Shown here piece after piece: positions 6,305 to 38,821 of a DNA stretch of 64,000 bases. The notes under the pieces were generated by a model. That model was not told where the DNA came from. It did no database searches and worked only from the letters and a program-made list of their open reading frames with translations. Source of the DNA: an uncultured Flavobacteriales bacterium (lineage in GTDB: Bacteria; Bacteroidota; Bacteroidia; Flavobacteriales; BACL11); assembly GCA_905181635.1 (NCBI GenBank), contig CAJIYM010000004.1, positions 78,264-142,263 on the forward strand. Direction: 5' to 3'. A program made the position numbers and the translations under genes. Positions within the stretch are counted from its first letter, which is position 1, and each line of letters starts with the position of its first letter.

Positions 6305-7092
6305 TAAAAACCAAATTTTCTTCTTAGAGTAAAAATGAAAAAATATCCAATTACAACATACAGTGGTGGGTCTAACTGAATAACTCTATTTATTAACTTT
6401 AAGTCACTGTCAATAAAATACTGTTTCCAATCTCCAATATTTCCCTTTCTAAATAATTTATGACTCTCAACACCCAACTCGGGATAATACTTATTACCTC
6501 CCTCTAATGCTACAGTCTTCATTTTACTTAATGAAGTATTTTCTTTAATCTTCAAAATTTCAGAAGTAGAAATTTTAGAAACACCTAGAATCAAACATAA
6601 TTTATTTACTGAATCAATGAAATCAGATTTTAACATCTCAAAAGAAAAAAATAAATTTGAATCAAAATTATTTTTGTACCTAGAATTGCATAAGCATATC
6701 TCATAAGCTTTAAATACACCAATAAATTTGAAATAACTATTAAAGCCTAACCCTTTATTCCTGTAATTATTGAAATGATGAAAATGTGATACTATTGCAT
6801 CTTTGACATTTCTAGTGATAAATATAAATCTAACATCAGTTGAATATTTTTCAATCATTACTTTATTACTAAAATAGTGAGCTTTAGTAATATAATTAAA
6901 CTTTTTAAAATCTTCATTCTTCAAAAAATTAGGTAGGTTATTTTCTAAAATTCTAGTTGGAGACTTAATATCCGGATTATAATTAATGGGAATTACATCA
7001 ATTTTAATGTCTTTAATTCTAAATATTTCTAATACAATCGCATGAATCCATGAAGAGCCAGACTTAAAAGTACCATTACAGATTACTAACAT
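6304..7092 (-). CDS. PAPS-dependent sulfotransferase (Sulfotransfer_1-like) with hydrophobic C-terminal tail
   Basis: 5'-PSB-like FKSGSSW near the N-terminus, 3'-PB-like RFIFITRNVKDAIVSHFHHF, and C-terminal FRKGNIGDWKQYF (RKGxxGDWKxxF signature). Last ~20 aa are hydrophobic (YVVIGYFFIFTL). Confidence 0.8.
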   Translation of the reverse strand: MLVICNGTFKSGSSWIHAIVLEIFRIKDIKIDVIPINYNPDIKSPTRILENNLPNFLKNEDFKKFNYITKAHYFSNKVMIEKYSTDVRFIFITRNVKDAIVSHFHHFNNYRNKGLGFNSYFKFIGVFKAYEICLCNSRYKNNFDSNLFFSFEMLKSDFIDSVNKLCLILGVSKISTSEILKIKENTSLSKMKTVALEGGNKYYPELGVESHKLFRKGNIGDWKQYFIDSDLKLINRVIQLDPPLYVVIGYFFIFTLRRKFGF

Positions 7093-7898
7093 AATAATTC
7101 GTTTTTACAATTTTTTCTAATTTTCTCTTGCAATAGAATTGAATTTATGTTTCTAAAAAAAGAAAAATTAAAAACTGACAAGAGATTTCGAAAAGGAAAC
7201 AGACAACTTACTAGTAAACCAAAAAAAGGTTGATATCTAACATGTAAATAGCAATATGCTTTGCGAAATTTAAATTTATGCATTAAGAAATTCTGAACAT
7301 TTGTTTGATGAGAAATGCATCTTGTGCCATCAGTAACGTATTTTAATTCTTTATCATTTAAATAATAATTATTCATAGTATAAAATAACGCATAAAACGG
7401 ATATTTCTTAGCATAAATTGGTAAAATCTTGATCGTTGAATAATCGCAACAATCATCAAAAACTCTATTTTGAGCAAAACCAATAAGAGAATTATTGTTG
7501 TAGACTCCCCAATAATCAAAAGAAGGGAGCAAATCAGCATTAAATTGCTTTAAACTTTTAATTTTATTTTTAGAGTTATAAAGCAAAGATGCTGTTTTAT
7601 AGATAACATATGAATTATTTAACATTTCATCAACACTAATCCTTCTAATTTCAAAATTCTTCAGACCTTTAAAAATTTGATTTCTAGTATTAGAACTATA
7701 GTCACTAAGATCCATCTTTCTGTCCAGAATCAAATACCAAAAATCCAATTTTTTATTGCAATCAAAATTTGTTACCCAGCGTGCAAGAAAAGCATTTCTT
7801 TTTTTTAGCTCCACACTTAGATTTTGAGTGAGAACTTCATCATGAGGTGCTTTTGCAGAAACTAATACTCCTTGATATTTTCTCCACTGACTAATCAT
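7086..7898 (-). CDS. Hypothetical protein; tentative GNAT/FemAB-like (Acetyltransf_6-type) acyl- or aminoacyl-transferase
   Basis: 270 aa, no TM segment. Weak by-eye resemblance only: NTRNQIFKGLKNFEIRRIS, SLIGFAQNRVF, FLMHKFKFRKA recall FemAB-like GNAT proteins found in glycan loci. Coupled by overlaps to both neighbours. Confidence 0.35.
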   Translation of the reverse strand: MISQWRKYQGVLVSAKAPHDEVLTQNLSVELKKRNAFLARWVTNFDCNKKLDFWYLILDRKMDLSDYSSNTRNQIFKGLKNFEIRRISVDEMLNNSYVIYKTASLLYNSKNKIKSLKQFNADLLPSFDYWGVYNNNSLIGFAQNRVFDDCCDYSTIKILPIYAKKYPFYALFYTMNNYYLNDKELKYVTDGTRCISHQTNVQNFLMHKFKFRKAYCYLHVRYQPFFGLLVSCLFPFRNLLSVFNFSFFRNINSILLQEKIRKNCKNELLC

Positions 7899-9081
7899 TA
7901 TTATTTCTATTTAATGTTAAAGGTAATTCAATTAGACTCATCGCCATAATTACAAAAAGCAATCTAGAATCATTTAAACTTCCACTAAAAAATGAATTAA
8001 TAACTAAATATAATTGCAAATAAAATAACAAAGGATAATAAGAATATACATGATCCTTGTATAAAAACATTTTTTTATAGTTATAAAATAAAATATAGAT
8101 AATTAAAAATAAAAATAGAATTCCAGAAAAAATACCTAATTCAGTAAAAACCTCTAAAACTAAATTATGCGGATATTCATGTTTTAATAAATGAGTAGGT
8201 TTAACTTTATTTATATAAGTCTGCCAATTACCTAATCCGACACCAAAAGGATAATGTATCACTAAATCTAAAGAACGAAGTGCAAATAAAGCACGCGCAT
8301 TTTTTGATCTATTATCTTTAGTTACTAATCTATCAATTTTACCAAAATCAATATGGGATGAACTTATACCTGAAAAAAAAGCAATTGAAAAAACGAGAGA
8401 AGAATACAGAAAAAATCGAAAAAATATGTTCTGAAAGTTAAGAACAAAATAAGCTAAAAAGGTGATTAATAAAGAAAAAATAGGCCCTCTACTTCCTGCA
8501 GCTAAAGATAGAAATAAGAAAAACAGCATTAGTAATAAACTTTTCTTATTAATCGCACCTTTATTTATAAAAAATAAGATGATAAAACCAACATTCATCC
8601 ATCTAGCAAATACAATTGGTCCACCTCCAAGAGCACTAATTCTGCCAGTAATAGTGACATCACCTGCAAATAAACCAATTAGGGAAAGCACAAAAATAAA
8701 AGCTAAAAGAATTTTAAAAAAAATTCTCACATCATGATATTTGAAAGTTTCAACAACAATAACAACCAAAGGAACAACAATTAAAATAAAATTAATATAT
8801 TTTAATAAGCCTAAATGTTCGTAATCAAAATATAAAAATAAAATTGGCGTTAAGATTATCACTATTAATAAGAAAGAATAAAGAAAACGTTTAGTAGAAT
8901 AAAATTTAATCTTTTTTATTGAAAAAAGTAGAGGAATAGAGAGAAGTAAAAAAGAGATACTTAAAATGAGTGAAAAATTTATTCCAAAAAACTCAAGTCG
9001 TTCATCGTATAATCTTCCTATAGCCAACATTGCACATGCTAATAATAAATATAGCCAAGAAAAAATATTTTTATATTTCAT
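7891..9081 (-). CDS. Wzy-like O-antigen/oligosaccharide repeat-unit polymerase (O-antigen ligase-like family) membrane protein
   Basis: 396 aa, about 10 TM helices, with SLAAGSRGPIFSLLITF resembling the Wzy_C core and a periplasmic loop before the last helices. Confidence 0.7.
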   Translation of the reverse strand: MKYKNIFSWLYLLLACAMLAIGRLYDERLEFFGINFSLILSISFLLLSIPLLFSIKKIKFYSTKRFLYSFLLIVIILTPILFLYFDYEHLGLLKYINFILIVVPLVVIVVETFKYHDVRIFFKILLAFIFVLSLIGLFAGDVTITGRISALGGGPIVFARWMNVGFIILFFINKGAINKKSLLLMLFFLFLSLAAGSRGPIFSLLITFLAYFVLNFQNIFFRFFLYSSLVFSIAFFSGISSSHIDFGKIDRLVTKDNRSKNARALFALRSLDLVIHYPFGVGLGNWQTYINKVKPTHLLKHEYPHNLVLEVFTELGIFSGILFLFLIIYILFYNYKKMFLYKDHVYSYYPLLFYLQLYLVINSFFSGSLNDSRLLFVIMAMSLIELPLTLNRNNND

Positions 9082-10342
9082 ATCTATAATATTTCACAAA
9101 AGCAATAACTGACAAAACAAAAGAAATAAAAGATAATGTGTAAATCATTACTAAAGAATTAAACCTTACTCCATGACTATTTAAATAGAAATAAATCAAT
9201 AATAGAAAAACAGAAAAAATAAATGGTCTAGCTAAATATTTACTTTCTTTATTAAGATATGATTGAGGTAAAGTAAAGTAAGGCTGAAATAATGCAGAAG
9301 CAATAAACATAAATATAAAACTCCAACACATATCGTTTATATAACTAGATGTCAATAATGTATCACTAGTTGAGAAAGCACCTCTTTCGAAAACAAAAGA
9401 TACAATTTCAAAACTAAATAAAGAAATAAAGAAGATGAAGAATCCACCTATTATAGCTGAAAGTAATGTTGAAAGTAAAATTATTTTATAATCTCTTCTA
9501 ACAGAAATTATTTTTAAAACTAACGTGTTAACATTCATTATAACAGCAGTTAAAAAAATGTTCAAAAATATTATTGCATAAGTATAGAATGCAATATTAT
9601 TACTCCCATCTGCTCCAGAAACGAATCTACCAGAAAACATTATAATATTTGCAAAATTACCCAATATCAATATTGAAAAATTTAAATCTTTCGTAGACAA
9701 ATTTGCCTTAACACCACCTTTATCTGCAATTAATGGTTTAATATAAACTAAAGCTAAAGTAATTGCTCCACTTAATCTACTAATAACAACACCTACTAAA
9801 CCAAATAATAGAGTAAGAGGATACAACAAAAGAGTTGACAAAGAAATATTTAAAGATGTAGCTACAGAATGTCTTTTAAAATTTCCCTTAGCCTGAATAA
9901 TAGTGAGAAAAATAGAATTAAAGAAATTTACACTCATAACGATACCTAAGAAAAATGATAACACAATATATATAACTATTCTATCAGGTTGAATATAAAA
10001 AATCAAGGGTAGCTGAATAAATTGACTAAATAGAAATAATTTAAAAGAAAAATATTTTGAAAAATCATATACATTAGAAATATCTAGTGTAGAATGACTT
10101 GCATACAATTTTGTAAATTTTGGCATAATATTAGCTTGCAAAGCATTACCAAGAGTAAATTGCGAGAAAAAGTCAGTAATAGTTTTAAGAAGCAAATAAT
10201 TCGCATACATAATATCTGATCCAAAGAAGAATGCTAATATAACTTCTCTTAAAAAACCAAAAGCCTTCTTTAATAGATTAGAAGAAAACATATAAATAAA
10301 GTCGGAAGTGGTTTTTAATAAAAGTATACTTTTAATAGACAT
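9071..10342 (-). CDS. MurJ/MviN-like MOP-superfamily flippase
   Basis: 423 aa polytopic. N-terminus NLLKKAFGFLREVILAFFFGSDIMYANYLLLKTITDFFSQFTLGNALQANIMPKF parallels the MurJ SRxxGxxRdxxxAxxFGa...F..afiP pattern. Confidence 0.65.
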   Translation of the reverse strand: MSIKSILLLKTTSDFIYMFSSNLLKKAFGFLREVILAFFFGSDIMYANYLLLKTITDFFSQFTLGNALQANIMPKFTKLYASHSTLDISNVYDFSKYFSFKLFLFSQFIQLPLIFYIQPDRIVIYIVLSFFLGIVMSVNFFNSIFLTIIQAKGNFKRHSVATSLNISLSTLLLYPLTLLFGLVGVVISRLSGAITLALVYIKPLIADKGGVKANLSTKDLNFSILILGNFANIIMFSGRFVSGADGSNNIAFYTYAIIFLNIFLTAVIMNVNTLVLKIISVRRDYKIILLSTLLSAIIGGFFIFFISLFSFEIVSFVFERGAFSTSDTLLTSSYINDMCWSFIFMFIASALFQPYFTLPQSYLNKESKYLARPFIFSVFLLLIYFYLNSHGVRFNSLVMIYTLSFISFVLSVIAFVKYYRYEI

Positions 10343-10347
10343 TTGAT

Positions 10348-10551
10348 CTATTCTTTAACTATTACTTGCAAATATTTAAAACTCTTGATTTCAAAAAAAT
10401 CAAAATTAAATTGATTTACTCCATCAATAAATAAATTTTCGATCATTTTAGATTGACAAACATCATCACAAAACAAATATTGGCCCATTTCTGCAAAATA
10501 AGCAGTAGCGACTAAGCCTACATAGCCTAAACCTATAACACCAAATTTCAT
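10348..10551 (-). pseudogene. ugd: Remnant of a UDP-glucose/nucleotide-sugar 6-dehydrogenase gene (N-terminal ~55 codons only)
   Basis: MKFGVIGLGYVGLVATAYFAEMG is the canonical N-terminal Rossmann motif of Ugd-type dehydrogenases (~390-450 aa). Here the frame ends after 67 aa and the next gene starts 6 nt later. Confidence 0.7.
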
Positions 10552-10552
10552 A

Positions 10553-11389
10553 TTAAGTAGTTTTTACTTCCTTCACTAATGCTACAAACAAACCAAAAAT
10601 AAAACTTAAAACAACACCTAAAATCCCTAAAACTAAAACATCATTTTCCTTCTGATTAACATTAGCAAAATTCTGCACAAAAGATAGGGGTTTAAGTAAT
10701 TCTGAATTTGTTTTAATTTCTTCCCTCATGTGCGATAAAGTAATTATCTCATTGCTTAACTTTCTATTTTCTCCACTAATAGTATTTTGAGATCCTAGAG
10801 CAAAACTATTCATATTAGTTTCAACTCTTATTTGATTTAGAACACTTATTTCATCATTAATATCACTAATTAATGATCCACTAGAAAGTATATATGATTT
10901 ATAATAGCTAGAAATGTATGGATTATTTTCAAAATAATATATTAAACCAGATTCAATATTTTTATTTTGCTTATTGCCATATGTAGTTAAAGAAATTTCA
11001 AATTTATTAAGTGCATAAAACTTCTCATTCATGTCTTGTTGATATAATTGTTCTGCAACAATTTTTTTAATAGTTGAAGCAACCTCTAAATTTAATCCCA
11101 AGGAAAAAGCTAATGATGAATAATCCTTATTATCAATATTAATTTGCAAATGATTGATTAAATCAATAGCTGTTCTTTGACTTAAATCTTCTACTTGATC
11201 TTGCCTTTCATATTCCGAAATACCAGACATACAAATAGCTTTTGTCTCATAATAAGGAGGTTTCAACTTTTGATAACCCACCACACTAATTAAACCAATC
11301 AACATAAAGATCAGTAATAAACTAACATTTCGCGAAATAAATTTCACAAAATTTGAAAACATCTCACTTAAATTTAATTCTTCTATCAT
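10553..11389 (-). CDS. Wzz-like polysaccharide chain-length determinant (PCP-type: N- and C-terminal TM helices flanking a coiled periplasmic region)
   Basis: 278 aa. TM helix at LLLIFMLIGLISVVGY, a second at VLVLGILGVVLSFIFGLFVALV, hydrophilic helical middle. First gene of the glycan operon. Confidence 0.5.
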   Translation of the reverse strand: MIEELNLSEMFSNFVKFISRNVSLLLIFMLIGLISVVGYQKLKPPYYETKAICMSGISEYERQDQVEDLSQRTAIDLINHLQINIDNKDYSSLAFSLGLNLEVASTIKKIVAEQLYQQDMNEKFYALNKFEISLTTYGNKQNKNIESGLIYYFENNPYISSYYKSYILSSGSLISDINDEISVLNQIRVETNMNSFALGSQNTISGENRKLSNEIITLSHMREEIKTNSELLKPLSFVQNFANVNQKENDVLVLGILGVVLSFIFGLFVALVKEVKTT

Positions 11390-23655: not shown

Positions 23656-24149
23656 TGAAATTAATTTTTACCATTCTACTTAGCATATCTTTAAGTTCAT
23701 GTGGAATCTATTCATTTACGGGCGCATCAATACCAACTGAAGCTAAAACAATATCGGTAAACTATTTTAAGAACAAAGCAGCTACAGTGCAACCTGCATT
23801 AAGTCAAGTTTTTACCGAAAAGTTAAAAGATATGTTTCTAGAGCAAACTAATTTAAGCATAAGTGAAAATGAAGGTGACTTAATTTTTAGCGGATTCATA
23901 AGTAAATATCAGATAAAACCAATGGCAATAAAGGCCAATGAAACAGCTGATAAAAATAGATTAATTATTGCTGTAAGAGTAACTTATAATAATAGTTTAG
24001 ACTCCGAAAATAACTTTGAACACACCTTTAGTAGATATCGTGATTATGTTAGTACACAAAATATTTCGGATATTGAAAACACTCTAATTGAAGAGATAAC
24101 CAATGAAATAGTAGAGGATGTTTTCAACAAAGCATTTGTAAATTGGTAA
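23655..24149 (+). CDS. lptE: LptE-like lipoprotein
   Basis: 164 aa, lipobox LSSCGIYSFTG. Conserved position between the bEBP gene and secG in flavobacterial genomes, as I recall. Confidence 0.6.
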   Translation: MKLIFTILLSISLSSCGIYSFTGASIPTEAKTISVNYFKNKAATVQPALSQVFTEKLKDMFLEQTNLSISENEGDLIFSGFISKYQIKPMAIKANETADKNRLIIAVRVTYNNSLDSENNFEHTFSRYRDYVSTQNISDIENTLIEEITNEIVEDVFNKAFVNW

Positions 24150-24802
24150 TGGATAATTTAACAAAACATATTCAAAATCTACAACAAATATCTAGTAAGG
24201 ACGTGATTGAACTAGATTGCCTATTACAAGAATTTCCATACTATCAAACTGCCCAATTACTAATAACCAAAGGACTTTTAAATACGGATAGCATACGATA
24301 TAACCGACAATTAAAAAAAGCTGCTGCTTATGCTATTGATAGAAAACAGCTTTTTAAACTCATCATCTTAAAAAAAGCTGAGAAGACAACTATTTCGGAA
24401 ATAAGCAAAAATACAGAAGATAGTTTAGCAATGGGTCAACCTTTAGCATTTAATAATAAAGAAGAGTATTCCTTTTCGGAATGGTTAGCCGTATCTAAAG
24501 TTGAGAAAATAGATAGAACACCTAAACCAAACACAAAACAACTAATTGATAATTTTATTGGTAAAAAAATAAGCATTAGCAAACCTAAAAAGACTGATTT
24601 CTTTAAACCCATTAATGTAGCAAAGGAAAGTTTAATTGAAAATGAGAGCATAGTGACTCCCACTTTAGCTAAAGTTTACTTGGAACAAGGCTATTATGAT
24701 AAGGCAATTTCAGCTTACACAAAATTATGTTTGAAATATCCAGAAAAAAATAGTTTATTTGCAAACCAAATTAAATTGATCAATAAATTAAAAGAAAAAT
24801 AA
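24149..24802 (+). CDS. Hypothetical protein with C-terminal TPR-like helix pair
   Basis: ATG at 24149 overlaps the lptE-like stop (TAATG); the ORF-track TTG at 24143 is less likely. C-terminal YLEQGYYDKAISAYTKLCLKYPEKN resembles a TPR unit. Confidence 0.5.
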   Translation: MDNLTKHIQNLQQISSKDVIELDCLLQEFPYYQTAQLLITKGLLNTDSIRYNRQLKKAAAYAIDRKQLFKLIILKKAEKTTISEISKNTEDSLAMGQPLAFNNKEEYSFSEWLAVSKVEKIDRTPKPNTKQLIDNFIGKKISISKPKKTDFFKPINVAKESLIENESIVTPTLAKVYLEQGYYDKAISAYTKLCLKYPEKNSLFANQIKLINKLKEK

Positions 24803-25127: not shown

Positions 25128-25251
25128 ATTAGCACTAAATATTTAGATTTAATAAGGTATTCAATATTCTATCCAAATGAGGTGTTTAAATAAAACTAAA
25201 CACTTATCATATAGTCTGCCAAAATTTTATTTATTTTGGCACATTATACTT

Positions 25252-25267
25252 TGGCACACTTTGTGCA
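25252..25267 (+). promoter_or_regulatory. Candidate sigma-54 (-24/-12) promoter element upstream of groES
   Basis: TGGCACACTTTGTGCA, i.e. TGGCAC-N5-gTGCA. The GG and GC doublets have the canonical spacing and the element ends 38 nt before the groES ATG. It also overlaps a GCACA-ctt-TGTGC palindrome and a TTTGGCACA direct repeat. Confidence 0.35.
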
Positions 25268-25304
25268 ATTGGTATTACTATAAACAACTAATAAAACTAT
25301 AAAT

Positions 25305-27474: not shown

Positions 27475-29127
27475 TTAATCTACATTATCATGCAAAAAAG
27501 AATTATTTTGTTTCAACTCGGTAGAATTATTTTTCCCATCGCTTAAAGTATAGGTTGATATCTCATTTTCAGCTGAATGAGAATTTTCCTCTAACTCTAT
27601 CTGATTGCGTTTATAAGCCGGAATATCTTCCAAATTTGTTAAGCCAGAAGGTGTACGCAACTGCTGAGAAATAGCCCTTAATCTACTTTCACGCTCTCTT
27701 GCTTCAACTTTCATATTATCTGTGTTAACCTTAGGAATGCTTTCCATAGTTTTTAATGTCTCTAAATCAGCATCTTCCTCGTCACCCATTTCTAAAACAA
27801 TGGTTTTCATTTCTACCTTGGTTTCTTGATTCAAAATAGAACTAATTACTTGCTCAGGATTTTCTTCTTCAACATCAATATTCAATTCAAAAACTATCTT
27901 ATTTTCTTCCGCAATTTCAGCTGTATTTTCAATAGATTCAGGTGTTTCAAAATTCATTAATTCATCAGTTGGAGCAATATATTCTTCTTCTTCCAAATCT
28001 AAAATGTGCTGAGGACTGTTATTTAAAGATAAATCTAGATTAGGATCAATAGTTAATGACGACTCAATCTTATCATTGATTTGAACACCCACTTTTTCTT
28101 GATCTTCATCCAAACCAACAATAGTTGTTACTTTCGGCTTTCTTTTTTCCTCAAAACCTGTAGCCACAACAGTTACACTTACAGCAGAACCTAATTCAGG
28201 ATCAATACCAATTCCCTCAATAATATTCACATTGCGACCAGCTGCCTCTTGTATTTTATTTTTAATTTTAAATAGCTCTGACATTTTAATTTCGTCATCC
28301 CCATTTCCAGTTACTATTTTCAATAATACTTGCTGTGCACCAGTAATATCGTTATCATTTAAAAGAGGTGAATCTAAAGCTCCAATTACAGCTTCAATAG
28401 CTCTGTTTTCTCCTTCAGCAATAGCTTGTCCCATTACAGCTGTACCGCTATTTTCTAGCACTTTACGAGCATCATTTAAGTCAATATTAACTAATAAATG
28501 TTGAGAAATCACCTCAGCAATTCCTTTTGTAGCTGTATTTAACACCTCATTTGCTTTTCCAAAAGCTTGAGTAAAAGTTAGATCGCCATATACTTCAATC
28601 AATTTATCATTATTAATGATTAATAAAGTATCAACATACTTTTTTAATTCTGCTAAACCATCTTCAGCATATTGCTTACGATAACCTCCTTCTGTAGAAA
28701 ATGGATTCGTAACAACACCAACAGTCAGGATTCCTTTTTCACGTGCAATTTCAGCAATTACAGGTGCAGCACCAGTACCAGTACCACCACCCATACCTGC
28801 AGTCAAAAATAACATTTTAGTATTGGAATCTAATAGTTCAGTAATTCTATCAGCACTTTCTTCAGCTGCTTCTCTCCCTACTTGAGGATTAGAACCCGCC
28901 CCTAAACCTTCCGTTAAGCTAGCTCCTAACTGAATTTTAATTGGCACCGGACTTGCTTCAAGAGCTTGTGCGTCTGTGTTGCAAATTACAAAATCTACAC
29001 CTTTAATCCCATGTTCAAACATGTAATTCACAGCGTTACTCCCTCCTCCTCCAATACCCATCACTTTAATTTGTGAAGATTGGTTTTTTGGCATTTGGAA
29101 ATCCATTCCTAAGTCAATTGCACTCAT
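27475..29127 (-). CDS. ftsZ: Cell division protein FtsZ (long disordered acidic linker and C-terminal extension)
   Basis: GIGGGGSNAVN, GMGGGTGTGAAP tubulin signature. 550 aa. Confidence 0.97.
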   Translation of the reverse strand: MSAIDLGMDFQMPKNQSSQIKVMGIGGGGSNAVNYMFEHGIKGVDFVICNTDAQALEASPVPIKIQLGASLTEGLGAGSNPQVGREAAEESADRITELLDSNTKMLFLTAGMGGGTGTGAAPVIAEIAREKGILTVGVVTNPFSTEGGYRKQYAEDGLAELKKYVDTLLIINNDKLIEVYGDLTFTQAFGKANEVLNTATKGIAEVISQHLLVNIDLNDARKVLENSGTAVMGQAIAEGENRAIEAVIGALDSPLLNDNDITGAQQVLLKIVTGNGDDEIKMSELFKIKNKIQEAAGRNVNIIEGIGIDPELGSAVSVTVVATGFEEKRKPKVTTIVGLDEDQEKVGVQINDKIESSLTIDPNLDLSLNNSPQHILDLEEEEYIAPTDELMNFETPESIENTAEIAEENKIVFELNIDVEEENPEQVISSILNQETKVEMKTIVLEMGDEEDADLETLKTMESIPKVNTDNMKVEARERESRLRAISQQLRTPSGLTNLEDIPAYKRNQIELEENSHSAENEISTYTLSDGKNNSTELKQNNSFLHDNVD

Positions 29128-29153: not shown

Positions 29154-30479
29154 TTAATCTATATTTTCTTCAGTAAACCATCCTGTAAACTTATCCATCA
29201 ATGTCGGCTCAACATTTCTATCTCCATCTGATAGCACCTCATCTATCTCTTTATTTTCATCATGATTAATATTGGTTGATCTTTTCGATGGAACTTTAGT
29301 GTATTCCGCATGCTCAAAGCCCTTCATCACTAAGCCTACTCCAGTAGCATACATTGGACTAACAACAGTATCCTTTGACTCGCTCCCTAAATGTTCATTA
29401 GGATAACCAATGCGAGTTTCCTTTCCGGTAACAAAAGCAACTAACTGCTTTAAGTTTCTTATTTGTGCACCACCTCCAGTAATTACTATTCCTGTCATTA
29501 ATTTATTTTCATAACCAGAAACTTTAATCTGATGGTATACCAAATCAATAATCTCCTTGTAACGAGCACCTATAATCTCTGATAAGTTCTTTACCGCTAT
29601 TTCCTTTGGCTCTCTTCCTCTTAAACCCGGAATGGAAACCATTACATTTTCCTGATCCTCTGTGTACATTGCTGAACCAAATTTTACTTTCAGCAACTCA
29701 GCCTGCTTTTCTAAAATAGACAATCCCGTTTTAATATCCTTAGTAATTACATTTCCACCAAAAGGAATGACGGCAGTATGACGAATAATATTATCTAAAA
29801 AAATAGCAACATCTGTTGTTCCTCCTCCAATATCTACCAAAGCAACTCCTTCTCTTAACTCATCATCATCCAAAGTAGCAACTGCCGAAGCAAAAGGTTC
29901 TAGCACTAATTCTTTAGGGGTTAATCCAGCTTTTTCCACACACCTTATTATGTTACGCACAGCACCAACTTGAGCTGTAATCACATGAAAATTAGCCTCT
30001 AATTTTACACCAGCCATACCTTTAGGATCTTGTATTCCATCTTCTCCGTCCACAGTGTATTCTTGAGGAATAACATGAATGACCTCCTCACCTGGAATGG
30101 TAATTAGCTTAAACATATTAGATTTTAACTTATCAATATCAGCTTTATCAATCTCGATCTCTATATTATCTCTAACCAATTCCCCTCTATGCTGTAAGCT
30201 TTTTATATGCTGTCCAGCAATACCAACAAAAACCTCATCAATATCTATACCTGATTTTTTCTTTGCCTCACTAATTGCCTCCTTTATTGAATCAACAGTT
30301 TTATCAATATTAGCTACAATTCCTCTAGCTACTCCGTTAGAAACAGCTCTACCAGTGCCTAATATTTCTAATTTTTCATATTTATTTTTCCTACCAATCA
30401 TCACAGATATTTTGGTGGTACCAATATCAAGACCAACCATGTATTCCCCTGTACTTATATGTTGATTACTTTCTTCCAT
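29154..30479 (-). CDS. ftsA: Cell division protein FtsA
   Basis: VGLDIGTTKISVMIG, DIGGGTTDVAIF actin-fold motifs. 441 aa. Confidence 0.95.
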   Translation of the reverse strand: MEESNQHISTGEYMVGLDIGTTKISVMIGRKNKYEKLEILGTGRAVSNGVARGIVANIDKTVDSIKEAISEAKKKSGIDIDEVFVGIAGQHIKSLQHRGELVRDNIEIEIDKADIDKLKSNMFKLITIPGEEVIHVIPQEYTVDGEDGIQDPKGMAGVKLEANFHVITAQVGAVRNIIRCVEKAGLTPKELVLEPFASAVATLDDDELREGVALVDIGGGTTDVAIFLDNIIRHTAVIPFGGNVITKDIKTGLSILEKQAELLKVKFGSAMYTEDQENVMVSIPGLRGREPKEIAVKNLSEIIGARYKEIIDLVYHQIKVSGYENKLMTGIVITGGGAQIRNLKQLVAFVTGKETRIGYPNEHLGSESKDTVVSPMYATGVGLVMKGFEHAEYTKVPSKRSTNINHDENKEIDEVLSDGDRNVEPTLMDKFTGWFTEENID

Positions 30480-30482
30480 TTC

Positions 30483-31202
30483 TTATTTTTTTGTACAAAC
30501 AATTTGGTTATTATATGCTAAACTAATCTCACTATAGGTTTGCCAACCTTTAACAGGCATTGCTTGTTTGTAAAACTGATATAATTTTTCTAATTTTTTA
30601 TTTACATCTGTAAGTTTTCCAAAATGTATTCTCTGATTTCCTACCCTAGGTATAATAATTACTTCCTTGTTGCTAAAATGTACCTGAGTGAATTGTGATT
30701 TCCAGAATTTATCCTTATTTATTCTTTCTACAAAATTGAAAATACTAGAATGATACGACTCATTTACATCTCCAGTCACAACCAAAACTCTCGGCGTATA
30801 CTCACTTGATAAAGGCATTTTTATTCCATGCTCATCTAAGTAATAATCATTAATATCTGTTTTAATACGAAGTACCGCCTTTCTTTGCTGTAAGATGATG
30901 TTTACCATACCCTCTTGATTACTAAATACTTCTGAGCTTTTAACGGCAGGATGTTGCAAAAAAGCTATCTCTAATTCGTTCAAATAAAAATCTGAAAGAG
31001 CAACACTGTCAAAATAGAAATCATGTTGTTCAATATATTTTAATGCAATCTGCTCAGTCATAAATTTATCTTCTGAGAATTCAATATCTATTTGATTTAA
31101 GAAAACCATTTGCTTATTTTGCTTTTGATTCGTAAACACCAAAACAATAACCATCAAAGACAATAGCATTCCCCATTTTAATATTTGCCATACCTTTTTC
31201 AT
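30483..31202 (-). CDS. ftsQ: Cell division protein FtsQ (single TM + POTRA)
   Basis: 239 aa, N-terminal TM helix WGMLLSLMVIVLVF. Position between murC and ftsA. Confidence 0.75.
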   Translation of the reverse strand: MKKVWQILKWGMLLSLMVIVLVFTNQKQNKQMVFLNQIDIEFSEDKFMTEQIALKYIEQHDFYFDSVALSDFYLNELEIAFLQHPAVKSSEVFSNQEGMVNIILQQRKAVLRIKTDINDYYLDEHGIKMPLSSEYTPRVLVVTGDVNESYHSSIFNFVERINKDKFWKSQFTQVHFSNKEVIIIPRVGNQRIHFGKLTDVNKKLEKLYQFYKQAMPVKGWQTYSEISLAYNNQIVCTKK

Positions 31203-32607
31203 TAATTAAGCAAATGTTTTATAGGTTGCGCCAAAGTTCCAATGTCACCAGCTCCTAGTGTAATCAAAACATCTAAATTCTTCTCTTCCAATATTTTTAA
31301 TAACATCCTGTTTACTACATGTTTCTTTTTTTGGACTAGTACACAAACCCAACAACATTCTAGAATTTACCCCCTCAATTGGCAATTCTCTTGCAGGGTA
31401 TATATCTAACACAATAAGCTGATCGGCTAGTGACAAAGAAACTGCAAACTCTTGTGCAAAGTCCTTGGTGCGTGAAAATAAATGTGGTTGGAATACTACA
31501 GTAATCTCTCGATCAGGAAATAAAAGTTTTGCTGCATTTATTGTGGCACTTACTTCTTGAGGATGATGTGCGTAATCATCAACATAAGCTAATTCCTCTG
31601 CGTATTGATATGAACATCAAATCTTCTATTTACTGCCTTTAAAAGTGTCTAATCCCCTTTCAATATCTTCACAAGAAAGTCCTAAATAACAGGCAACTGC
31701 TGAAGCAGCAACTGCATTACTAACATTGTGTATTCCTGGTAAAATAAATGATAATCCTTCTTGCTTTTTTTCATATGTCATTCCTGGCATAATATCCATA
31801 GCTGTCAAATCAAAAACCATTTTACCTTCTTTCACTTTTATATTTTCAGCTGAATAATCCGCTTTATTTACTGCTGAATAAGTAAGCTTCATACCCTTGA
31901 TCAGGAGTCGGAAAATCAATCGTTATAGAATCCTCCAACAATAATAATCCATTAGGTTTTATTTGAGATGCAAACTGCTTAAATGCATTATGTAAATCTT
32001 GTTTATCCTTATAAACATCCAAATGATCAGCATCCACAGAAGTGATAATCGCTACATCAGGTTGTAATTGCAAAAAAGACTTATCGTATTCATCTGCTTC
32101 CACAATAAGGATATTTCCTTTTTCAGCTAACAACAAATTTGTATTATAATTTTTACTTATACCTCCTAAAAAGGCAGTAGATTGCTTGCCTGCATGATTC
32201 AAAACATGAGCCAAAATTGCTGAAGTTGTTGTTTTACCATGTGTCCCCGCGACAGCAATAGTAAAAGATTCTTTGCTTATCATTCCTAAAACCTCAGCTC
32301 TTTTGTGTAACTTAAATCCTTTATCCTTAAAATAATTTAACACTACATTTTCCTCAGAAATTGCAGGAGTATAAATAACTAAAATTTCATTAAAAGTAGC
32401 TTCTTGTATGTATTGGGGTATATTTTCTATTGCGTCATTGTAATGAATTTTAATTCCTTCACTTTCCAGTTCATTACATAAATTTGATTGCACTTTGTCA
32501 TAACCACAAACCTGTTTTCCCTTAGCATTAAAATAGCGTGCTAAAGCACTCATTCCAATACCTCCAACACCAATTAGGTAAATATGTTTGTATAAATCTA
32601 TGTTCAT
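31202..32607 (-). pseudogene. murC: UDP-N-acetylmuramate--L-alanine ligase, reading frame broken at about 4 points
   Basis: Colinear MurC homology spread over several frames. 32607..31864: IGVGGIGMSALA, AGTHGKTTT, ADHLDVY. 31919..31626: GIHNVSNAVAA. A segment that includes VNRRFD. The frame running ~31605..31245: [16 protein letters not shown] ... [13 protein letters not shown], continuous with DIYPARE. A final frame [25 protein letters not shown] ending at TAA 31204..31202, which overlaps the ftsQ ATG. Confidence 0.85.
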
Positions 32608-33710
32608 TTTATTAAACCCAATGCAATTTCTGCTATCCTATCTGCTGCATCTTTCACAGCTAATTTTTTAATATTATTACTTAACTTTTCTTGCTTACTA
32701 CTATCTGATAATAATTCCAGTAGCATTAGTACAAGTTTACGGCTTGCATCCCTATCCTTAACAAGTAAAGCCGCATTCTTATTAACCAATGATTGTGCAT
32801 TTTTATACTGATGATTTTCGGACACATTAGGAGAAGGAATTAAGATAATTGGCTTACCTACACAACACAATTCTGAAATAGCAATTGCTCCTGCACGCGA
32901 AACAATAACATCAGCAGCAGCATAAGCTAAATCCATATCTTTTATAAAAGTATACGCCTGAATTCCAGGTCACACCAACCTTATTAGTAATTTCTTTAGC
33001 TTGATCCTGAAAAGAATTTCCTGTTTGCCAAATTAAATTTACGTTAGCAGTTTTGAAATCAGCATATTTTGCTAGCAATAGCATTGTTTATTGCTACGTG
33101 CACCCAAACTACCACCTACAACCAAAACAGTTGGCTTTGAAACATCTATATTAAATAGCTTTCTACCTTCCTCAACTTTCGTATCAAAACTTAAAATATC
33201 TATCACGGATAGGGTTACCTGTAATAATCAATTTTTCATTTCCAAAAAATCTCTCCATATTATCGTAAGCTACACAGACTTTTTGAACATATTTTGCTAA
33301 AATTTTATTGGTAATTCCTGGATAAGAATTTTGTTCTTGAATAAGTGAAGGCACCCCATTATTAGCAGCTGCAAAAAGTAAAGGACCACTAGCATAACCA
33401 CCAGTTCCAATTGCTAAATCAGGTTTAAATTGTTTAATAATTTTTCTTGCTTTTAGCAAACTACTTACAACCTTAAAAGGAAATAATAAATTACGCTCTA
33501 CTCAAGTTTCTTTGCAAGCCCACTAATCCAAAGTCCAACAATTTTATATCCTGCTGCTGGAATTTTTTCCATTTCCATTCTATCCTCAGCACCAACAAAT
33601 AGAAACTCTACTTTATCTACTTTTTTTTCTATTGCTTTAGCAATTGCTATTGCAGGGAAGATATGTCCTCCTGTACCACCTCCACTAATGATTACTTTAA
33701 ACTTTTTCAT
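32604..33710 (-). pseudogene. murG: Undecaprenyldiphospho-muramoylpentapeptide beta-N-acetylglucosaminyltransferase, reading frame broken at about 6 points
   Basis: [24 protein letters not shown] (start 33710). Then LLFPFKVVSSLLKARKIIKQFKPDLAIGTGGYASGP..ITGNPIR. Then DILSFDTKVEEGRKLFNIDVSKPTVLVVGGSLGARS, INNAIASKI, ADFKTANVNLIWQTGN and PGIQAYTFIKDMDLAYAAADVIVSRAGA...NHQYKNA, each in a different frame. The stop overlaps the murC ATG (ATGA). Confidence 0.85.
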
Positions 33711-34827
33711 ACTTTCTATCTGTTGCATCTCTGCTTACACTCAATACTATCCCAATTGCAATACACGAAAATACAATTGAGGTTCCTCCCATACTTATCA
33801 GCGGTAGGGTTTGCCCAGTAACTGGCAATACTTCTACCGAAACTAACATATTTATTAAGGCTTGAAAAACTAAAGAAAACATTAAACCTGTAGTTAACAA
33901 ACTACCAAATACACTCTCCACTCTTAATGCAATCCTTATAGCTCTAAACATTAAAATCAAATAAAACAACAACGCTAACACACCTCCAAATAAGCCATAT
34001 TCCTCTATAATAATTGCATAAATAAAATCGGAAGATGAATAAGGTAAAATATTTCTTTGTGTACTTTTTCCTGGGCCCAAGCCTGTCATCCCTCCATTTT
34101 GTATAGCTACCAATGCTTGTGTTTGCTGAAAATCTTTGCTTTGCTCATCTCCCTCAGCATCAACAAAAAAACTATCAATACGACTTACCCAAGTAGCGGA
34201 CCTTGGCATAATTTTTGTCCCTAAAGGAGTAAATTTAGCAGTCGCATAAATAGTAAGTGCTCCTACAAAAGCAAAACCTATAATCGCCGCAATAAATTTA
34301 ATACGAATTTTTCCAACAAACATCAGTACCAACCCATTAATAAACACCAATGCTGCTGTAGAAAAATTATTTGGTAAAATTAAAATACAAACCAAAAGTA
34401 AAGGCCCTAGAACATACCAAAATAATTCCTTAAAATCATGTAGATAATCCCTTTGCTTACTAATCTGTCTTGCCATATAAACCAGTATTGCCAACTTAGC
34501 TATATCTGAAGGCTGAAATTGTTGACCAGCAATTTGCAACCACCTTGACGCTCCGTTAACACTTACTCCTATAAGTAAAACTAACACCAGTAAAAACAAG
34601 CTAAATAGAAATCCTAACTGTCCTAATTTTGAAAAATACTTAAACTTGATTTTATGCACAACATACATAGCAAATAATCCAAGTAATAATTTAGAAATAT
34701 GACTAAATAAAAAATGCCAACCAGCAGTACTGTATACTACTAATATAGAAGACAAAGACAAAGCAAGAACCACCCCCCAAATTGTTCTATCTCCCTCTAA
34801 ATTGATATTTTTAATCCAAGAGCTCAT
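33697..34827 (-). CDS. ftsW: Peptidoglycan glycosyltransferase FtsW (SEDS family)
   Basis: 376 aa polytopic. [17 protein letters not shown] and [21 protein letters not shown] motifs. dcw position. Confidence 0.9.
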
Positions 34828-36147
34828 TTACAGATTACGAACTTGTTTTTTAAACTGCAAACCTCTATCTTCATAATTAGTAAATAAATCGAAACTAGCA
34901 CATGCTGGCGACAACAAAACAACATCCTGCTTATCAGCTAATGCATAAGATTGATTTACAGCCTCCTGCATGCTTGAAGCCTGAACAATGATTTCTACTT
35001 TGCCTTTGAAAGCTTCAATAATATTTTCATTACTTTCTCCTAAACAAATAATTGCCTTAACCTTTTTATCAACCATTTCAGTTAACTCAGCATAGTCATT
35101 ACCTTTATCTACTCCACCAACGATCCAAACAACTTTTTTAGTCATACTTTCAAGAGCATACCAACAGGCATTTACATTAGTTGCTTTAGAATCATTAATA
35201 AAATCAATACCATGTACAGTAAGGACATACTCTAATCTGTGTTCAATATTTTGGAAATCAATCATTGCTTGACGGATAACCGTATCCTTTACTTCAAAAA
35301 CTCTTGCCGCCATTGCAGCTGCCATTGAGTTAAAAATATTGTGCTGGCCTTTTAGGGCTAGTTCTTGCATGGTCATAGTATTATTATTTAAATTAATTGT
35401 TATTTGATTGTTGTTGTAAAATCCACCTTCTATTTGTTTGTTTTTTAATGAAATTGGAACTTTTTTTGCTTTAGATGTAAGAGACTCCATCATTGCATCA
35501 TCTGCATTATAAATTAGTACATCTTGCTTAGTTTGATTTTTGGTAATCCTGAATTTTGATTCTGCATAATTTTCCAGTTTATAATTATATCTATCCAAAT
35601 GATCAGCAGTAATATTTAGTAATACAGCAACTTCACTTCTGAATTCCTTAATGCCATCCAACTGGAAACTACTCAATTCCAAAATGATATAATCATAATC
35701 ACGTTCAGCTAAAGAAAATGCAAACCCAACACCTATATTTCCTGCTACTAGCACATCATAGCCTGCACTTTTCAGCACATGCCCTAGAAGTAAAGAAGTT
35801 GTAGTTTTTCCGTTACTTCCAGTAATAGCCGCGATTTTTGCTTTAGTATATCTAAAAGCAAATTCAATTTCAGATATTACTGAAATCTCTTTTGCAATTA
35901 ATTGCTGAATCAATTCTACATTATCAGGAATTCCAGGACTTTTAATAACCTCATCCGCACTTAAAATCCTTGCTGGTGTATGCTTTTTTTCCTCCCACTC
36001 AATCTCATTATATAAAAGAACTGCTTTATTTTCATCTGTGATTATTCCCTTATCCGAAACAAAAACATTAAATCCTTTCTTCTTTGCTAAAACAGCCGTA
36101 CCAACTCCACTAATTCCTGCGCCTAGTACGACTATTCTTCTTACCAT
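34828..36147 (-). CDS. murD: UDP-N-acetylmuramoylalanine--D-glutamate ligase
   Basis: [16 protein letters not shown] start at 36147 (TAATG overlap with the mraY stop); the ORF-track start at 36204 is an upstream extension. ITGSNGKTTT. Confidence 0.92.
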   Translation of the reverse strand: MVRRIVVLGAGISGVGTAVLAKKKGFNVFVSDKGIITDENKAVLLYNEIEWEEKKHTPARILSADEVIKSPGIPDNVELIQQLIAKEISVISEIEFAFRYTKAKIAAITGSNGKTTTSLLLGHVLKSAGYDVLVAGNIGVGFAFSLAERDYDYIILELSSFQLDGIKEFRSEVAVLLNITADHLDRYNYKLENYAESKFRITKNQTKQDVLIYNADDAMMESLTSKAKKVPISLKNKQIEGGFYNNNQITINLNNNTMTMQELALKGQHNIFNSMAAAMAARVFEVKDTVIRQAMIDFQNIEHRLEYVLTVHGIDFINDSKATNVNACWYALESMTKKVVWIVGGVDKGNDYAELTEMVDKKVKAIICLGESNENIIEAFKGKVEIIVQASSMQEAVNQSYALADKQDVVLLSPACASFDLFTNYEDRGLQFKKQVRNL

Positions 36148-37361
36148 TACCTTAGTTTTAAAGTAACTATTGTTATAACCGCCAACATGATTCCAATAAT
36201 CCAAAACCTTGTAACAATTTTACTCTCATGCATTCCTAATTTCTGATAATGATGATGCAATGGTGCCATCTTAAAGACACGCTTTCCAACACCATATTTC
36301 TTTTTTGTGTATTTGAAATAACCTACTTGTAGCATTACTGATACATTTTCAATCAAAAATATCCCACACAAAATAGGGATTAGTAATTCTTTACGAATTA
36401 GGATAGCAACAACCGCAATGATACCTCCTAAAGCCAAAGAACCCGTATCACCCATAAATACTTGTGCTGGATAAGAATTATACCACATAAATCCAACACA
36501 AGCTCCTACAAAAGCAGACATATAAATCACCAATTCTCCTGTATTGGGAATATACATTATATTAAGATAATCGGCAGCAATTATATTACCAGACACATAG
36601 GAAAATAAGGCAAGTGTAGCACCAATAATTGCTGAAGTCCCTGTCGCTAAGCCATCTAAGCCATCCGTCATGTTTGCTCCATTGGAAACTGCAGTTACAA
36701 TAATTACCACTATCAGAATAAAGAATATCCAAGCAGAATCTTTTGCAGAATCTCCTATCCAAGAAGTTAGGTCTTGATAGTCAAATTCATTATTCTTAAA
36801 GAAAGGAGTTGTTGTTTTTGAAGATTTCTGAGCTAAATCAACCGAACCAATCATTTCAGTTTCTGTGAATAATTTAACATCCTCTTTCACCACAATATCA
36901 GTATGAAAAACCATTACCAAACCAACAATTAAACCAATACCTACTTGTCCTAAAACCTTAAACCTACCAGCAAGACCTTCTTTGTCTTTTTTATACACCT
37001 TGATATAGTCATCAATAAAACCAATTGCCCCTAGCCAAAGTGTAGAAATAATCATAATAATGATATAAATATTATCCAATTTTGTAAATAAAAGGGTAGG
37101 AATAAGAATAGCTGCCAATATGATTAGACCACCCATAGTTGGCGTTCCTTTTTTGCTTTCCTCACCTGCTAAACCCAATTCTCTTACTTGTTCTCCAATC
37201 TGTTTATTACGGATTATATTGATAATCTTACCCCCAAAAACTAAAGAAACTATAAGGGAGGTGATAATTGCCATTGCTGCACGAAATGAAATATACTGAA
37301 ACAGTCCTGCTCCAGGAAAATCATAAGTATTTTGTAAGTATTCGAATAAATAGTATAGCAT
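36147..37361 (-). CDS. mraY: Phospho-N-acetylmuramoyl-pentapeptide transferase
   Basis: [34 protein letters not shown]. 404 aa. Confidence 0.96.
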
Positions 37362-38821
37362 TATTGTTTAATTATATTTAATGATTGTTTAAGTTCCTCT
37401 AAATCGTCAAATGGAAATTTTTCACCATTAATTTCTTGATATTTTTCGTGTCCTTTTCCTGCCACCAATACAATATCATTTGCATTAGCTAGACGGCAAG
37501 CTGTTTTTATGGCTTGTTTCCTATCAATAATTACCAATACTTTTTTCTTTTGTACAGGATCAAGTTCTTGCATCATATCTTCAATAATTGCATCAGGATT
37601 CTCACTTCTTGGATTATCGGAAGTAAGGATAACTTGGTTGCTTAAATTACAAGCGACAGCCGCCATTAATAGACGTTTAGTTTTATCTCTATCGCCACCA
37701 CAACCTACTACCGTTATCAACTGCTCAGCGTTTGCTCTAATATTATTAACACTAGTAAGTACATTTTTAAGCGCGTCATCTGTATGCGCATAATCAACTA
37801 TTGCCGTAATTTTTTCTTCTGATTGTAAGTATTGAAATCTTCCTTCAGGTGATGTAAGCATACTCAAGCCTGTAAGTACTTCATGGTCTTCAAAAGCAAA
37901 CTGATTAGCAACTGCATAAACTGAAAGCAAATTGTAGGCATTAAAATCTCCTATCAATTTCACCCAAATATCCACCTTATTTATATTTAACAACATTCCC
38001 TCAAACTGATTTTCGAGCACCCTACATTTATAGTCCGAAACCGATTTTAATGAATAAGTACATTTTTGAGCTTTAGTCCCTTCTAGCATTTTCATACCAT
38101 TTTTATCATCTTTATTTGTAAGTACAAAAGCTGATTTTGGCAAAAGGTCAAAAAATGATTTTTTCACATCTCTGTATTCAGAAAAGCTATTGTGATAGTC
38201 CAAATGATCCTGAGTAAGATTGGTAAAAACACCACCAGTAAAGCTTATTCCTGAAATTCTACCTTGGGAAATAGCATGAGAACTTACTTCCATAAAACAA
38301 TACTCACAGCCTTGAGCAATCATCTCATTTAATAAAAAATTAATTTGCAAAGCATCAGGAGTAGTATGAGTAGATGGAATAATTTTATCTATAATTTTAT
38401 TATGAATAGTGGAGAGCATTCCAACCTTTACATTCATTATAGAAAAAAGTTGTGTTAACAAACTCACAATAGTTGTTTTCCCATTTGTACCTGTTACCCC
38501 TACTAGTTTTATTTTTTCAGAAGGGTTATCGTAAAAATTAGCAGCTATAATTCCCAAAGCAATATTGGAGTCCTCCACCTTAACATAGGTAATATTATCA
38601 TCCAATTTTAGAGGCATATCCTCCAACACAATAACTTTAGCACCTGCATTTATAGTTTGTGAGATATAAGTATGTCCATCTGACTGAGTTCCTTTTAAGG
38701 CAACAAACAAAGAAGTTGCTTTCACTTTTCTTGAATCAAAAGCAATATCTACCAACTCAACATTAGTAGTCCCAATAATTTTTACAAAACTTACTTTATA
38801 TAATAGTTCCTGTAAATTCAT
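37361..38821 (-). CDS. murE: UDP-N-acetylmuramoyl-L-alanyl-D-glutamate--2,6-diaminopimelate ligase
   Basis: [10 protein letters not shown] and the [10 protein letters not shown] (DNPR, meso-DAP-type) motif. 486 aa. Confidence 0.94.

Follow-up and report, generated by a model that had tools for sequence, protein, structure and literature searches.

A contig-merging pipeline that can yield a merged sequence of the kind described here is on record for Arctic Tara MAGs. In that published pipeline, contigs from co-assembly were pooled, and Geneious or CAP3 then re-assembled each bin, with 95% identity required in the overlaps; it is given here as a documented route to such merges, and not as the demonstrated source of the present sequence. 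Microdiversity and fragmentation were covered by Sereika et al. (2022), and tandem-allele insertions are absent from their discussion. In pseudogenes, the expected indel spectrum has deletions at least as frequent as insertions, often located in repeats.

Within the window (the whole stretch of DNA analysed, 64 kb), ten frame shifts were found in two adjoining genes of the minus strand, murG (33728-32604) and murC (32607-31202), and all neighbouring genes were intact. All features given below are on the minus strand. Judged from comparison with natural relatives, these shifts are very probably a consensus artefact that blends two co-occurring strains and not the mark of pseudogenes, and in the living organism both genes are almost certainly intact.

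Through stop-to-stop ORF mapping, 31202-33728 was resolved into nine ORF fragments, and ftsQ (30483-31202), ftsW (33697-34827), murD, mraY, murE and ftsI were each found as a single long ORF. An earlier sequence-only reading had placed about ten frameshifts in murC and murG and in no other housekeeping gene, and this was confirmed, with no further fragmented gene in the map of the 64 kb. Nine of its frame-switch positions agreed with ours within about 6 nt; the remaining one, placed at 31280, was off by 25 nt, the event lying at 31305-31307. The two gene junctions were as it had described them, ATGA for murG stop and murC start and TAATG for murC stop and ftsQ start.

In the profile search, the fragments matched only the murC model TIGR01082 (NCBIfam MurC, UDP-N-acetylmuramate--L-alanine ligase; curated cut-off 335.1 bits) or the murG model TIGR01133 (NCBIfam MurG, lipid II N-acetylglucosaminyltransferase; curated cut-off 250.25 bits), in colinear order and each below the cut-off. 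As encoded, the MurC fragments reached 206.6, 38.6 and 20.7 bits and the MurG fragments 96.9, 91.1, 48.6 and 16.7 bits. When 11 nt were removed, a MurG of 372 aa (366 aa if the start is the ATG at 33710) and a MurC of 466 aa were obtained without internal stop. The repaired MurC scored 397.3 bits over profile positions 1-447 of 449, and the repaired MurG 320 bits over positions 4-352 of 353, both above the cut-offs. No second copy of murC or murG was found within the 64-kb window, the only other match being the paralogue murD. In the gene-position index there was no exact-protein record for the window's FtsW, its MurE or its 247-aa MurC fragment; the protein collection does contain the MurC fragment, from a single contig of 342,824 bp.

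The events were placed on nucleotide alignments in which the set of natural relatives was enlarged from 7 to 27 and finally to about 60. All ten were insertions, nine of one base and one of two bases (11 nt in total), and the window contained no deletion column in the alignment. As the sequence-only reading had also stated, the correct frames held no nonsense codons or large deletions. None of the ten insertions was detected in the roughly 60 natural relatives, and among themselves these relatives showed no frame-disrupting indel. Over 11.6 kb, the short-read contig L082 shared 99.65% identity with the window, and its only 5 gap bases were the four murC events; its mismatches numbered 34 in 864 inside murC and 2 in 10,719 outside. 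Contigs L087 and L088 gave the same pattern, the three being 99.6-99.7% identical. Contig L089 had no mismatch over 35087-37468, and its only indels were the six murG insertions. These four contigs and L081 lacked all ten insertions, and an intact MurC of 466 aa was the norm in its 233-member protein cluster. L171, another long contig, which comes from a neighbouring ENA analysis, carried a union-type +1 insertion of its own that splits murC.

These comparisons bear directly on a genuine and very recent pseudogenisation of murC and murG, tolerated through paralogues elsewhere or through a wall-less or host-dependent lifestyle; tolerance through paralogues had been the alternative offered by the sequence-only reading. 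The deposited sequence does carry ten frame disruptions, and our search for second copies covered the 64-kb window. However, the disruptions were absent from independent samples of the lineage, including contigs 99.6-99.7% identical in the flanks, and the spectrum of 11 nt inserted with none deleted, and none in a homopolymer longer than 2, was not mutational. Relaxed selection was not seen either: there were no nonsense codons and no private substitutions, and murD, mraY, murE, ftsW and ftsI, the neighbours, were intact. Ten independent indels arising while a 10.7-kb flank gained 2 substitutions is not credible, and every inserted base was the allele of another haplotype, as shown below. We therefore regard inactivation as highly improbable.

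The composition of each insertion was read against the natural alleles. Six single-base insertions were located in murG. At 33517..33521, with the event itself placed at about 33519-33521, the window reads GGGCTTG, the union of GGGCT-G (L089) and GG-CTTG (L002/L171), and at 33497..33498 it reads TAGAGCG, the union of TAG-ACG (L081/L171) and TA-AGCG or TAG-GCG (L089/L002). At 33200..33202 GATAGATA unites GATA-ATA (L089) with GA-AGATA (L002-type). The alleles A (L081/L171) and G (L089) stand in tandem in GTAGCAAT at 33094..33095, as do T (L089) and G (L001/L171-type) in ATATGCTG at 33063..33064, and at 32969..32971 GTGACCTGG is the union of GTGAC-TGG (L081) and GT-ACCTGG (L089). The four murC events add 5 nt. 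At 31893..31896 the window has GGGTATG, with the alleles T (L082) and A (L081/L171) in tandem, and at 31633..31635 GGCAGTAAA unites GGCA-TAAA (L082) with GG-AGTAAA (L171/L001). The +2 event at 31598..31602, AATACGCAGAGGAATT, is the union of AATA-G-AGAGGATTT (L082) and AATACGCAG--GAATT (L005/L102-type), where L171 has ACTCAAGAA. The last, ACAGGATGTT at 31305..31307, unites AAAG-ATGTT (L082) with ACAGGA-GTT (L171/L001). Examples of union strings spanning insertions are AAAGGCAGTAAATAG, ACAGGATGTTATT and GTGTGACCTGGAA.

In 10 of 10 events the inserted base was the one that the other parent has in the neighbouring alignment column (null 0.047, P about 5e-14). When alleles were drawn from 27 natural haplotypes instead, nine events matched (null 0.18, P=1.6e-6), and under a strict two-haplotype k-mer test seven did so, against a null of 13-18%. 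The event at 32969 could not be generated exactly from L089 and L171 and requires an L081-like second parent. A dynamic-programming test, asking for the local window string to be generable from two parents, was passed by 9 of 10 events, but the null rate was 0.41, as every insertion that extends a homopolymer satisfies the test trivially, and it was dropped for significance.

Eight to nine of the ten events sit at pairs of adjacent parental SNPs. Such pairs numbered 14 in the murC zone, 13 in the murG zone and 7 in the ftsW/murD zone; those compatible with a shift numbered 5, 6 and 1, and the insertion events 4, 6 and 0, respectively. The frameshifts are confined to murG and murC because most adjacent-base differences between the haplotypes fall there, and not because of gene function; ftsW stays in frame because few adjacent parental differences occur in it. 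No event falls in the 5′ half of murC, since the haplotypes hardly differ there: this near-invariant core (32066..32599) varies barely among the sampled haplotypes and holds no insertion, and the short-read contigs L082 and L089 stop at its opposite edges.

None of the ten events lay in a homopolymer longer than 2, and no slippery motif common to the ten sites was found. Programmed recoding, in which +1/-1 ribosomal frameshifting or transcriptional slippage would restore the frame and leave both genes functional as encoded, would fit the full-length colinear homology across frames and the lack of stops in the correct frames. But the shift sites have neither motif nor homopolymer, occur in no relative, near-identical strains included, and are fully accounted for by parental SNPs. 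To our knowledge, ten recoding sites in two housekeeping genes would be unprecedented in bacteria, and the chance of this reading is negligible.

The insertions belong to a larger blended block (31283..35086, 3.8 kb), which spans the 3′ end of murD (34828..35086, in frame), ftsW (full length, in frame, about a 60:40 mixture), murG and most of murC. In this block the sites are a roughly 50:50 mix of two natural haplotypes from public data, which are about 9% apart: parent 1 (L082/L089), matching the window flanks, and parent 2 (L171). Together they accounted for 264 of 268 informative sites (138 parent-1-only, 126 parent-2-only, 4 neither), and natural controls left 5-77 sites unexplained. The edges were sharp. 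On the higher-numbered flank, from 36609 to 35095, 110 consecutive sites were parent 1; from 35086 to 31283 both parents were mixed; and from 31268 to 30402, 96 consecutive sites were again parent 1. The intact ftsQ (30483..31202) was pure parent 1, and over 20 independent contigs from marine metagenomes encode an identical FtsQ protein. The sequence-only reading had favoured a patch of about 2.3 kb, low in quality or misassembled; misassembly holds, as a blend of two haplotypes, and the extent is 3.8 kb, including ftsW and the murD 3′ end. The segment 37469-38145 in murE was also looked at as a candidate second blended block, and a good second parent was absent among the sampled haplotypes.

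No base private to the window was found in murG, murC, ftsW or ftsQ, the count being 0 in 2,527 sites, and about 4% of the sites in the patch differed from the contig of the same strain. Some long-read chemistries are typically biased towards insertions, and a random low-quality patch (unpolished long reads, low-coverage Sanger or 454, or poor gap filling), whose errors happened to be indels, would agree with this bias and with the limitation of the errors to one patch. Against this, the patch has no private base despite the difference of about 4%; the two natural haplotypes named above account for its substitutions, and its insertions avoid homopolymers longer than 2 and coincide with parental SNPs far above the expectation for random insertions. 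A homopolymer or long-read error model was accordingly rejected, and with it the "low-quality" part of the earlier claim, taken as random error. We consider a random patch very unlikely.

Switching between the parents was dense. In the murC zone (about 0.8 kb), comparison of L082 with L091 gave 70 informative sites split 37:33, with no site matching neither; the parent of origin switched 33 times, in places from one nucleotide to the next. The murG zone was split 41:35, with 2 sites matching neither. Natural haplotypes put through the identical analysis left 5-51 and 14-77 sites unexplained. Runs of parent 2 were somewhat blocky at short range, so the mixing was not strictly independent per site. 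The length profile of exact matches (MEM) was also tried as evidence of artificial mosaicism and does not discriminate alone, because any allele 3% from its nearest sampled haplotype gives short matches.

This density also bears on a real mosaic allele, made through homologous recombination and heteroduplex repair with an L171-like donor, in which the frameshifts would be biological at donor/recipient junctions. The block resembles an import in its sharp edges and in the roughly 9% divergence of the donor, and recombinational mosaicism is common in this population: measured against L089 and L090, divergence fell into blocks of 0% and of about 3-5%. But nothing comparable to about 33 switches in 70 sites occurred in the natural haplotypes, and we know of no described repair-tract mosaic nearly as dense, nor of any repair mechanism that writes two alleles in tandem. 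The product would, in addition, inactivate two essential genes. This reading is as improbable as inactivation of the genes. That two haplotypes share identical flanks may well be due to a plain import that segregates in the population; such an import belongs to the artefact explanation and does not compete with it. Fainter still is the prospect that the insertions are real on single molecules, a polar marine flavobacterium with two diverged ftsW-murG-murC copies, e.g. a transient merodiploid after DNA uptake, having produced the mosaic, tandem double alleles included, through dense template switching and so inactivated murC and murG.

Returning to the blended consensus, the observations are best explained by an alignment-based consensus taken over 31283-35086 from the two natural haplotypes, haplotype 1 being the contig's own strain (L082, L089) and haplotype 2 being L171-like. 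At ordinary SNP columns, either allele would be taken nearly at random, giving a fine mosaic of natural alleles. Where differences are adjacent or clustered, the aligner would open a pair of gaps instead of mismatches, and a consensus retaining the base in both gap columns would write both alleles in tandem, adding one base (two in one case) and shifting the frame. Candidate steps are the merging of overlapping contigs, polishing against a read pileup, or a consensus called from long reads. A deterministic two-sequence tie-break by base identity was excluded, as chosen and rejected bases were symmetric (A/G 10:11, C/T 9:9). The two haplotypes may have piled up in this block alone through a short bridging contig from another strain; alternatively, a 3.8-kb recombinant allele may segregate within the strain, from which identical flanks may well follow. 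A bridging contig was sought in ERZ1699362 via the MurC and MurG protein clusters and was not found there; the cluster search yielded 11 further intact natural haplotypes. A literature search on the ERZ accessions gave no hits.

The biological weight of the locus is small, since normal copies of both genes are almost certainly present in the organism, and the matter is one of data hygiene. In this genome, murC and murG, both essential for peptidoglycan, would be reported by annotation pipelines as pseudogenes or gene fragments, which would depress apparent genome completeness and could pass for cell-wall loss. The intact-looking ftsW and murD 3′ end within the block encode chimeric proteins, which probably exist in no cell. 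The signature is a simple diagnostic by which reference sequences reveal collapsed-strain consensus errors in MAGs, with three parts: insertion-only frameshifts, inserts that each equal a population allele of the next column, and a block with sharp limits in which the alleles of two parents are unlinked.

Compared with known systems, programmed frameshifting and slippage (prfB, dnaX, and poly-A slippage in endosymbionts) share with the window a frame change inside a conserved gene, but the sites of the window have no slippery sequence, homopolymer or conservation. Pseudogenes of genome-reducing bacteria (Mycobacterium leprae, Sodalis and recent endosymbionts) likewise show several frame disruptions in a colinear, recognisable gene; the window differs in that it is insertion-only, its inserts are neighbouring population alleles, nonsense and private substitutions are absent, and near-identical strains and the surrounding pathway genes are intact. 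Recombination mosaics (the pbp genes of Streptococcus and Neisseria, and Helicobacter imports with interspersed recipient segments) resemble it in the kb-scale, sharp-edged block and a donor about 9% divergent, whereas in the window the parents switch every few bases and not every few hundred, with tandem double alleles, and such fine switching is absent from the natural haplotypes of this population. The collapsed-strain MAG consensus, as when contigs of different co-assemblies are merged by overlap in bin re-assembly with CAP3, Geneious or minimus2, differs in that a simple two-sequence tie-break rule is excluded for the window and the bridging contig was not recovered from ERZ1699362; like the window, it merges two co-occurring haplotypes, and the two share natural alleles only, unlinked parent switches, pure flanks and indels at aligner gaps.

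The window has a G+C content of about 32%, and its minus strand carries a Bacteroidota-type dcw cluster in the ORF map. ftsZ (27475-29127), ftsA (29154-30479), ftsQ (30483-31202) and ftsW (33697-34827) are each a single long ORF, as are murD, mraY, murE and ftsI of the same strand, and the murG-murC interval (31202-33728) is split into nine ORF fragments. These fragments matched only the murC (TIGR01082) and murG (TIGR01133) models, in colinear order and each below the curated cut-off, and no other gene was found fragmented when ORFs were mapped from stop to stop over the whole 64 kb; the observation of a broken murC and murG made in an earlier sequence-only reading is therefore real. The coupled junctions that it described, ATGA and TAATG, are also present. 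No second copy of murC or murG was found within the window. Removal of 11 inserted bases gave a 372-aa MurG (320 bits, curated TIGR01133 cut-off 250.25) and a 466-aa MurC (397.3 bits, curated TIGR01082 cut-off 335.1), both 95-97% identical to natural proteins and both free of internal stops, in agreement with the earlier remark that the correct frames hold no nonsense codons.

For the first alignment panel, seven close relatives were taken from a genome collection; all seven are marine Cryomorphaceae/Flavobacteriales MAGs of 80-95% DNA identity, with murG and murC intact. Against these relatives the window showed ten events, every one an insertion on its side; nine add a single base and one adds two. 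They map at about 33521, 33497, 33202, 33094, 33064 and 32969 in murG and at about 31893-6, 31633-5, 31598-9 and 31305 in murC (minus strand); the seven relatives had no indels among themselves in the aligned murG/murC. No insertion site (0/10) had a homopolymer longer than 2. Programmed recoding is contradicted, for the ten sites share no motif and the shift sites are absent in the relatives.

More than 20 independent marine metagenome contigs, some from Tara polar stations and others from different sites, encode the exact FtsQ protein of the window. L082, a contig of the window's own strain (ERZ1699362), matches the window across 11.6 kb at 99.65% identity; it has 2 mismatches in 10,719 positions outside murC and 34 in 864 in the murC part, and its gap bases are five only, namely the four murC events; L087 and L088 showed the same pattern. 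L089, located via the exact MraY protein and coming from the same sample as L082, has no mismatch with window 35087-37468, and the six murG insertions account for all of its indels. Both genes were intact in about 30 further metagenome haplotypes and 11 more, and in a protein cluster with 233 members, full-length MurC of 466 aa is usual. Thus the alignment to closest relatives that had been proposed as a check found the ten insertions to be peculiar to the window.

Besides these events, the only indels against near-identical contigs are natural strain-level variation: a 7-nt indel with several 1-2-nt indels in the groES-secG intergenic region (25135-25268) and a GAA indel of 3 nt in the ftsZ-ftsA spacer (29132). 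At 24385-24401, in a 219-aa ORF (24143-24802) adjoining lptE, a +1 and a -1 indel that compensate each other over 16 nt were seen against haplotypes L081 and L084; the protein is poorly conserved, and ambiguous alignment is the probable cause. In the 3' part of murG, a 27-nt in-frame gap (32750-32776), relative to the window and the remaining haplotypes, in at least one natural haplotype of the panel of at least 88% identity is ordinary length variation.

By inspection, at each insertion event the window reads as the shortest common supersequence of a pair of natural haplotypes that differ there. L082 GGCA-TAAA and GG-AGTAAA of L171, a 105-kb contig of ERZ1699694, are joined as GGCAGTAAA in the window, and L082 AAAG-ATGTT and L171 ACAGGA-GTT as ACAGGATGTT. 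In a strict k-mer test, two distinct deletion variants were observed at 7 of the 10 events, compared with 13-18% for simulated random insertions. The inserted base was the alternative allele of the adjacent column in 9/10 events among 27 natural haplotypes (null 0.18, P = 1.6e-6), and with only the two identified parents all ten inserted bases matched (null 0.047, P = 5e-14).

The extra substitutions are alleles that occur in nature, interleaved from site to site. We found no bases private to the window in ftsW, murG, murC or ftsQ, every base there being matched, in the aligned column, by at least one natural haplotype; therefore the excess divergence of roughly 4% from the contig of the same strain does not stem from random error. 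This, together with the non-random placement of the insertions, contradicts random low-quality sequence. In murC, where the window departs from its own clade it has an allele belonging to a different clade, and the neighbouring sites have the own-clade allele. At 70 sites informative between L082 and another haplotype, L091 (31283-32055), the window matches L082 at 37 and L091 at 33 with no third allele, and switches parent 33 times, in places from one nucleotide to the next; below 31268, an unbroken run of 92 sites is of L082 type. The best haplotype pair in murG gave 41:35 with 2 unexplained. Natural haplotypes in the identical analysis left 5-51 (murC) and 14-77 (murG) sites unexplained, so the window is an outlier, a near-perfect blend of two parents. 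The switching density and the tandem alleles contradict a biological recombination mosaic.

A truncated 247-aa MurC fragment is on record for the source contig alone (342,824 bp), and L171 was reached through its protein cluster. L171 was set as parent 2, and parent 1 was made up of L089 from 32600 upwards and L082 from 32065 downwards. Of the 268 informative sites in 31283-35086, this pair accounted for 264 (138 parent-1-only, 126 parent-2-only, 4 neither). The parent-of-origin string has 110 consecutive parent-1 sites from 36609 to 35095, mixed parents from 35086 to 31283 and 96 consecutive parent-1 sites from 31268 to 30402. The anomaly is therefore a sharply bounded 3.8-kb block; an anomalous patch had been rightly suspected, but its size of about 2.3 kb was too small. 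The block also takes in ftsW and the murD 3' end (33697-35086), which are in frame yet inside it, so that the proteins they encode are chimeras in which alleles of two strains are combined. No exact match to the window's FtsW protein is on record in the gene index.

Eight or nine of the ten events lie at adjacent-base parental differences, where a gapped alignment would compete with consecutive mismatches. The murC zone has 14 adjacent parental SNP pairs (5 shift-compatible, 4 insertion events), the murG zone 13 (6 and 6) and the ftsW/murD zone 7 (1 and 0). No events occur in the murC 5' half and murG 3' end, because these stretches are nearly uniform among the sampled haplotypes, with 0-4 differences per 100 bp. 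The gene-specific pattern is thus set by where the two haplotypes differ, not by gene function. Real pseudogenisation, the recent inactivation offered earlier as an alternative, is contradicted by the insertion-only spectrum, the ten of ten allele matches, the lack of private or nonsense changes and the intact murC/murG in strains with two differing bases across the 10.7-kb flank. Region 31283-35086 is almost certainly a collapsed-haplotype consensus artefact and not a real biological feature, with the ten frameshifts as its visible symptom; the misassembly first preferred is so upheld and made specific. The block may serve as a warning case, and its signature as a diagnostic in the quality control of MAGs.

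Two other regions were observed. After 2.4 kb of perfect identity (35087-37468), murE 37469-38145 is about 5.5% divergent from L089, and haplotype L090 diverges from the window starting at 37397. No clean second parent was found among the sampled haplotypes (at least 13 'neither' sites), and there is no recorded protein identical to the window's MurE; the segment may be natural recombinational divergence or another, indel-free blended block. Within window 1-11000, G+C falls to 0.25-0.26 at about 6-11 kb, compared with about 0.32-0.34 in the remainder, and AT skew is strongly positive at 8-10 kb. This may be a gene island that was acquired horizontally or is of polysaccharide type.

L171 itself (4745-4760 of ERZ1699694 contig_2005, window ~31855) carries one +1 insertion of its own, by which murC is broken into 253 + 204 aa. 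The sequence there, GATTACTTCAGC, corresponds to GATTA-TTCAGC in L001 and GATTAC-TCAGC in L003, both natural; it has two alleles in tandem, and therefore the union-type artefact recurs in that data set. Short-read contigs of this population usually break off within murC: nine of ten metagenome contigs with identical FtsQ end inside it (31374, 31860, 31993, 32003, 32065, 32243), which suggests an assembly-graph tangle from co-occurring strains at the locus in many samples. L082 stops at 32065 and L089, of the same sample, at 32600, one on each side of a near-invariant core. These ends and the L171 insertion are consistent with two co-occurring haplotypes at the locus. Alternatively, the two-haplotype pile-up could come from a recombinant allele of 3.8 kb that segregates in the strain, and if so this would account for the sharp block edges.

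As for the step that produced the collapsed consensus, to our knowledge a de Bruijn graph assembler cannot output strings occurring in no read; the union strings would therefore point to an alignment-based consensus, through contig overlap merging, pileup polishing or long-read consensus. A simple base-identity tie-break was excluded as the consensus rule. A hypothetical bridging contig was not recovered by searching through MurC/MurG protein clusters (ERZ1699362). In a published Arctic Tara MAG pipeline, contigs were pooled from several co-assemblies and bins were re-assembled with Geneious or CAP3 at an overlap identity cut-off of 95%. Bin re-assembly of this type is a documented route to strain merges, and for the window it would be a candidate route.
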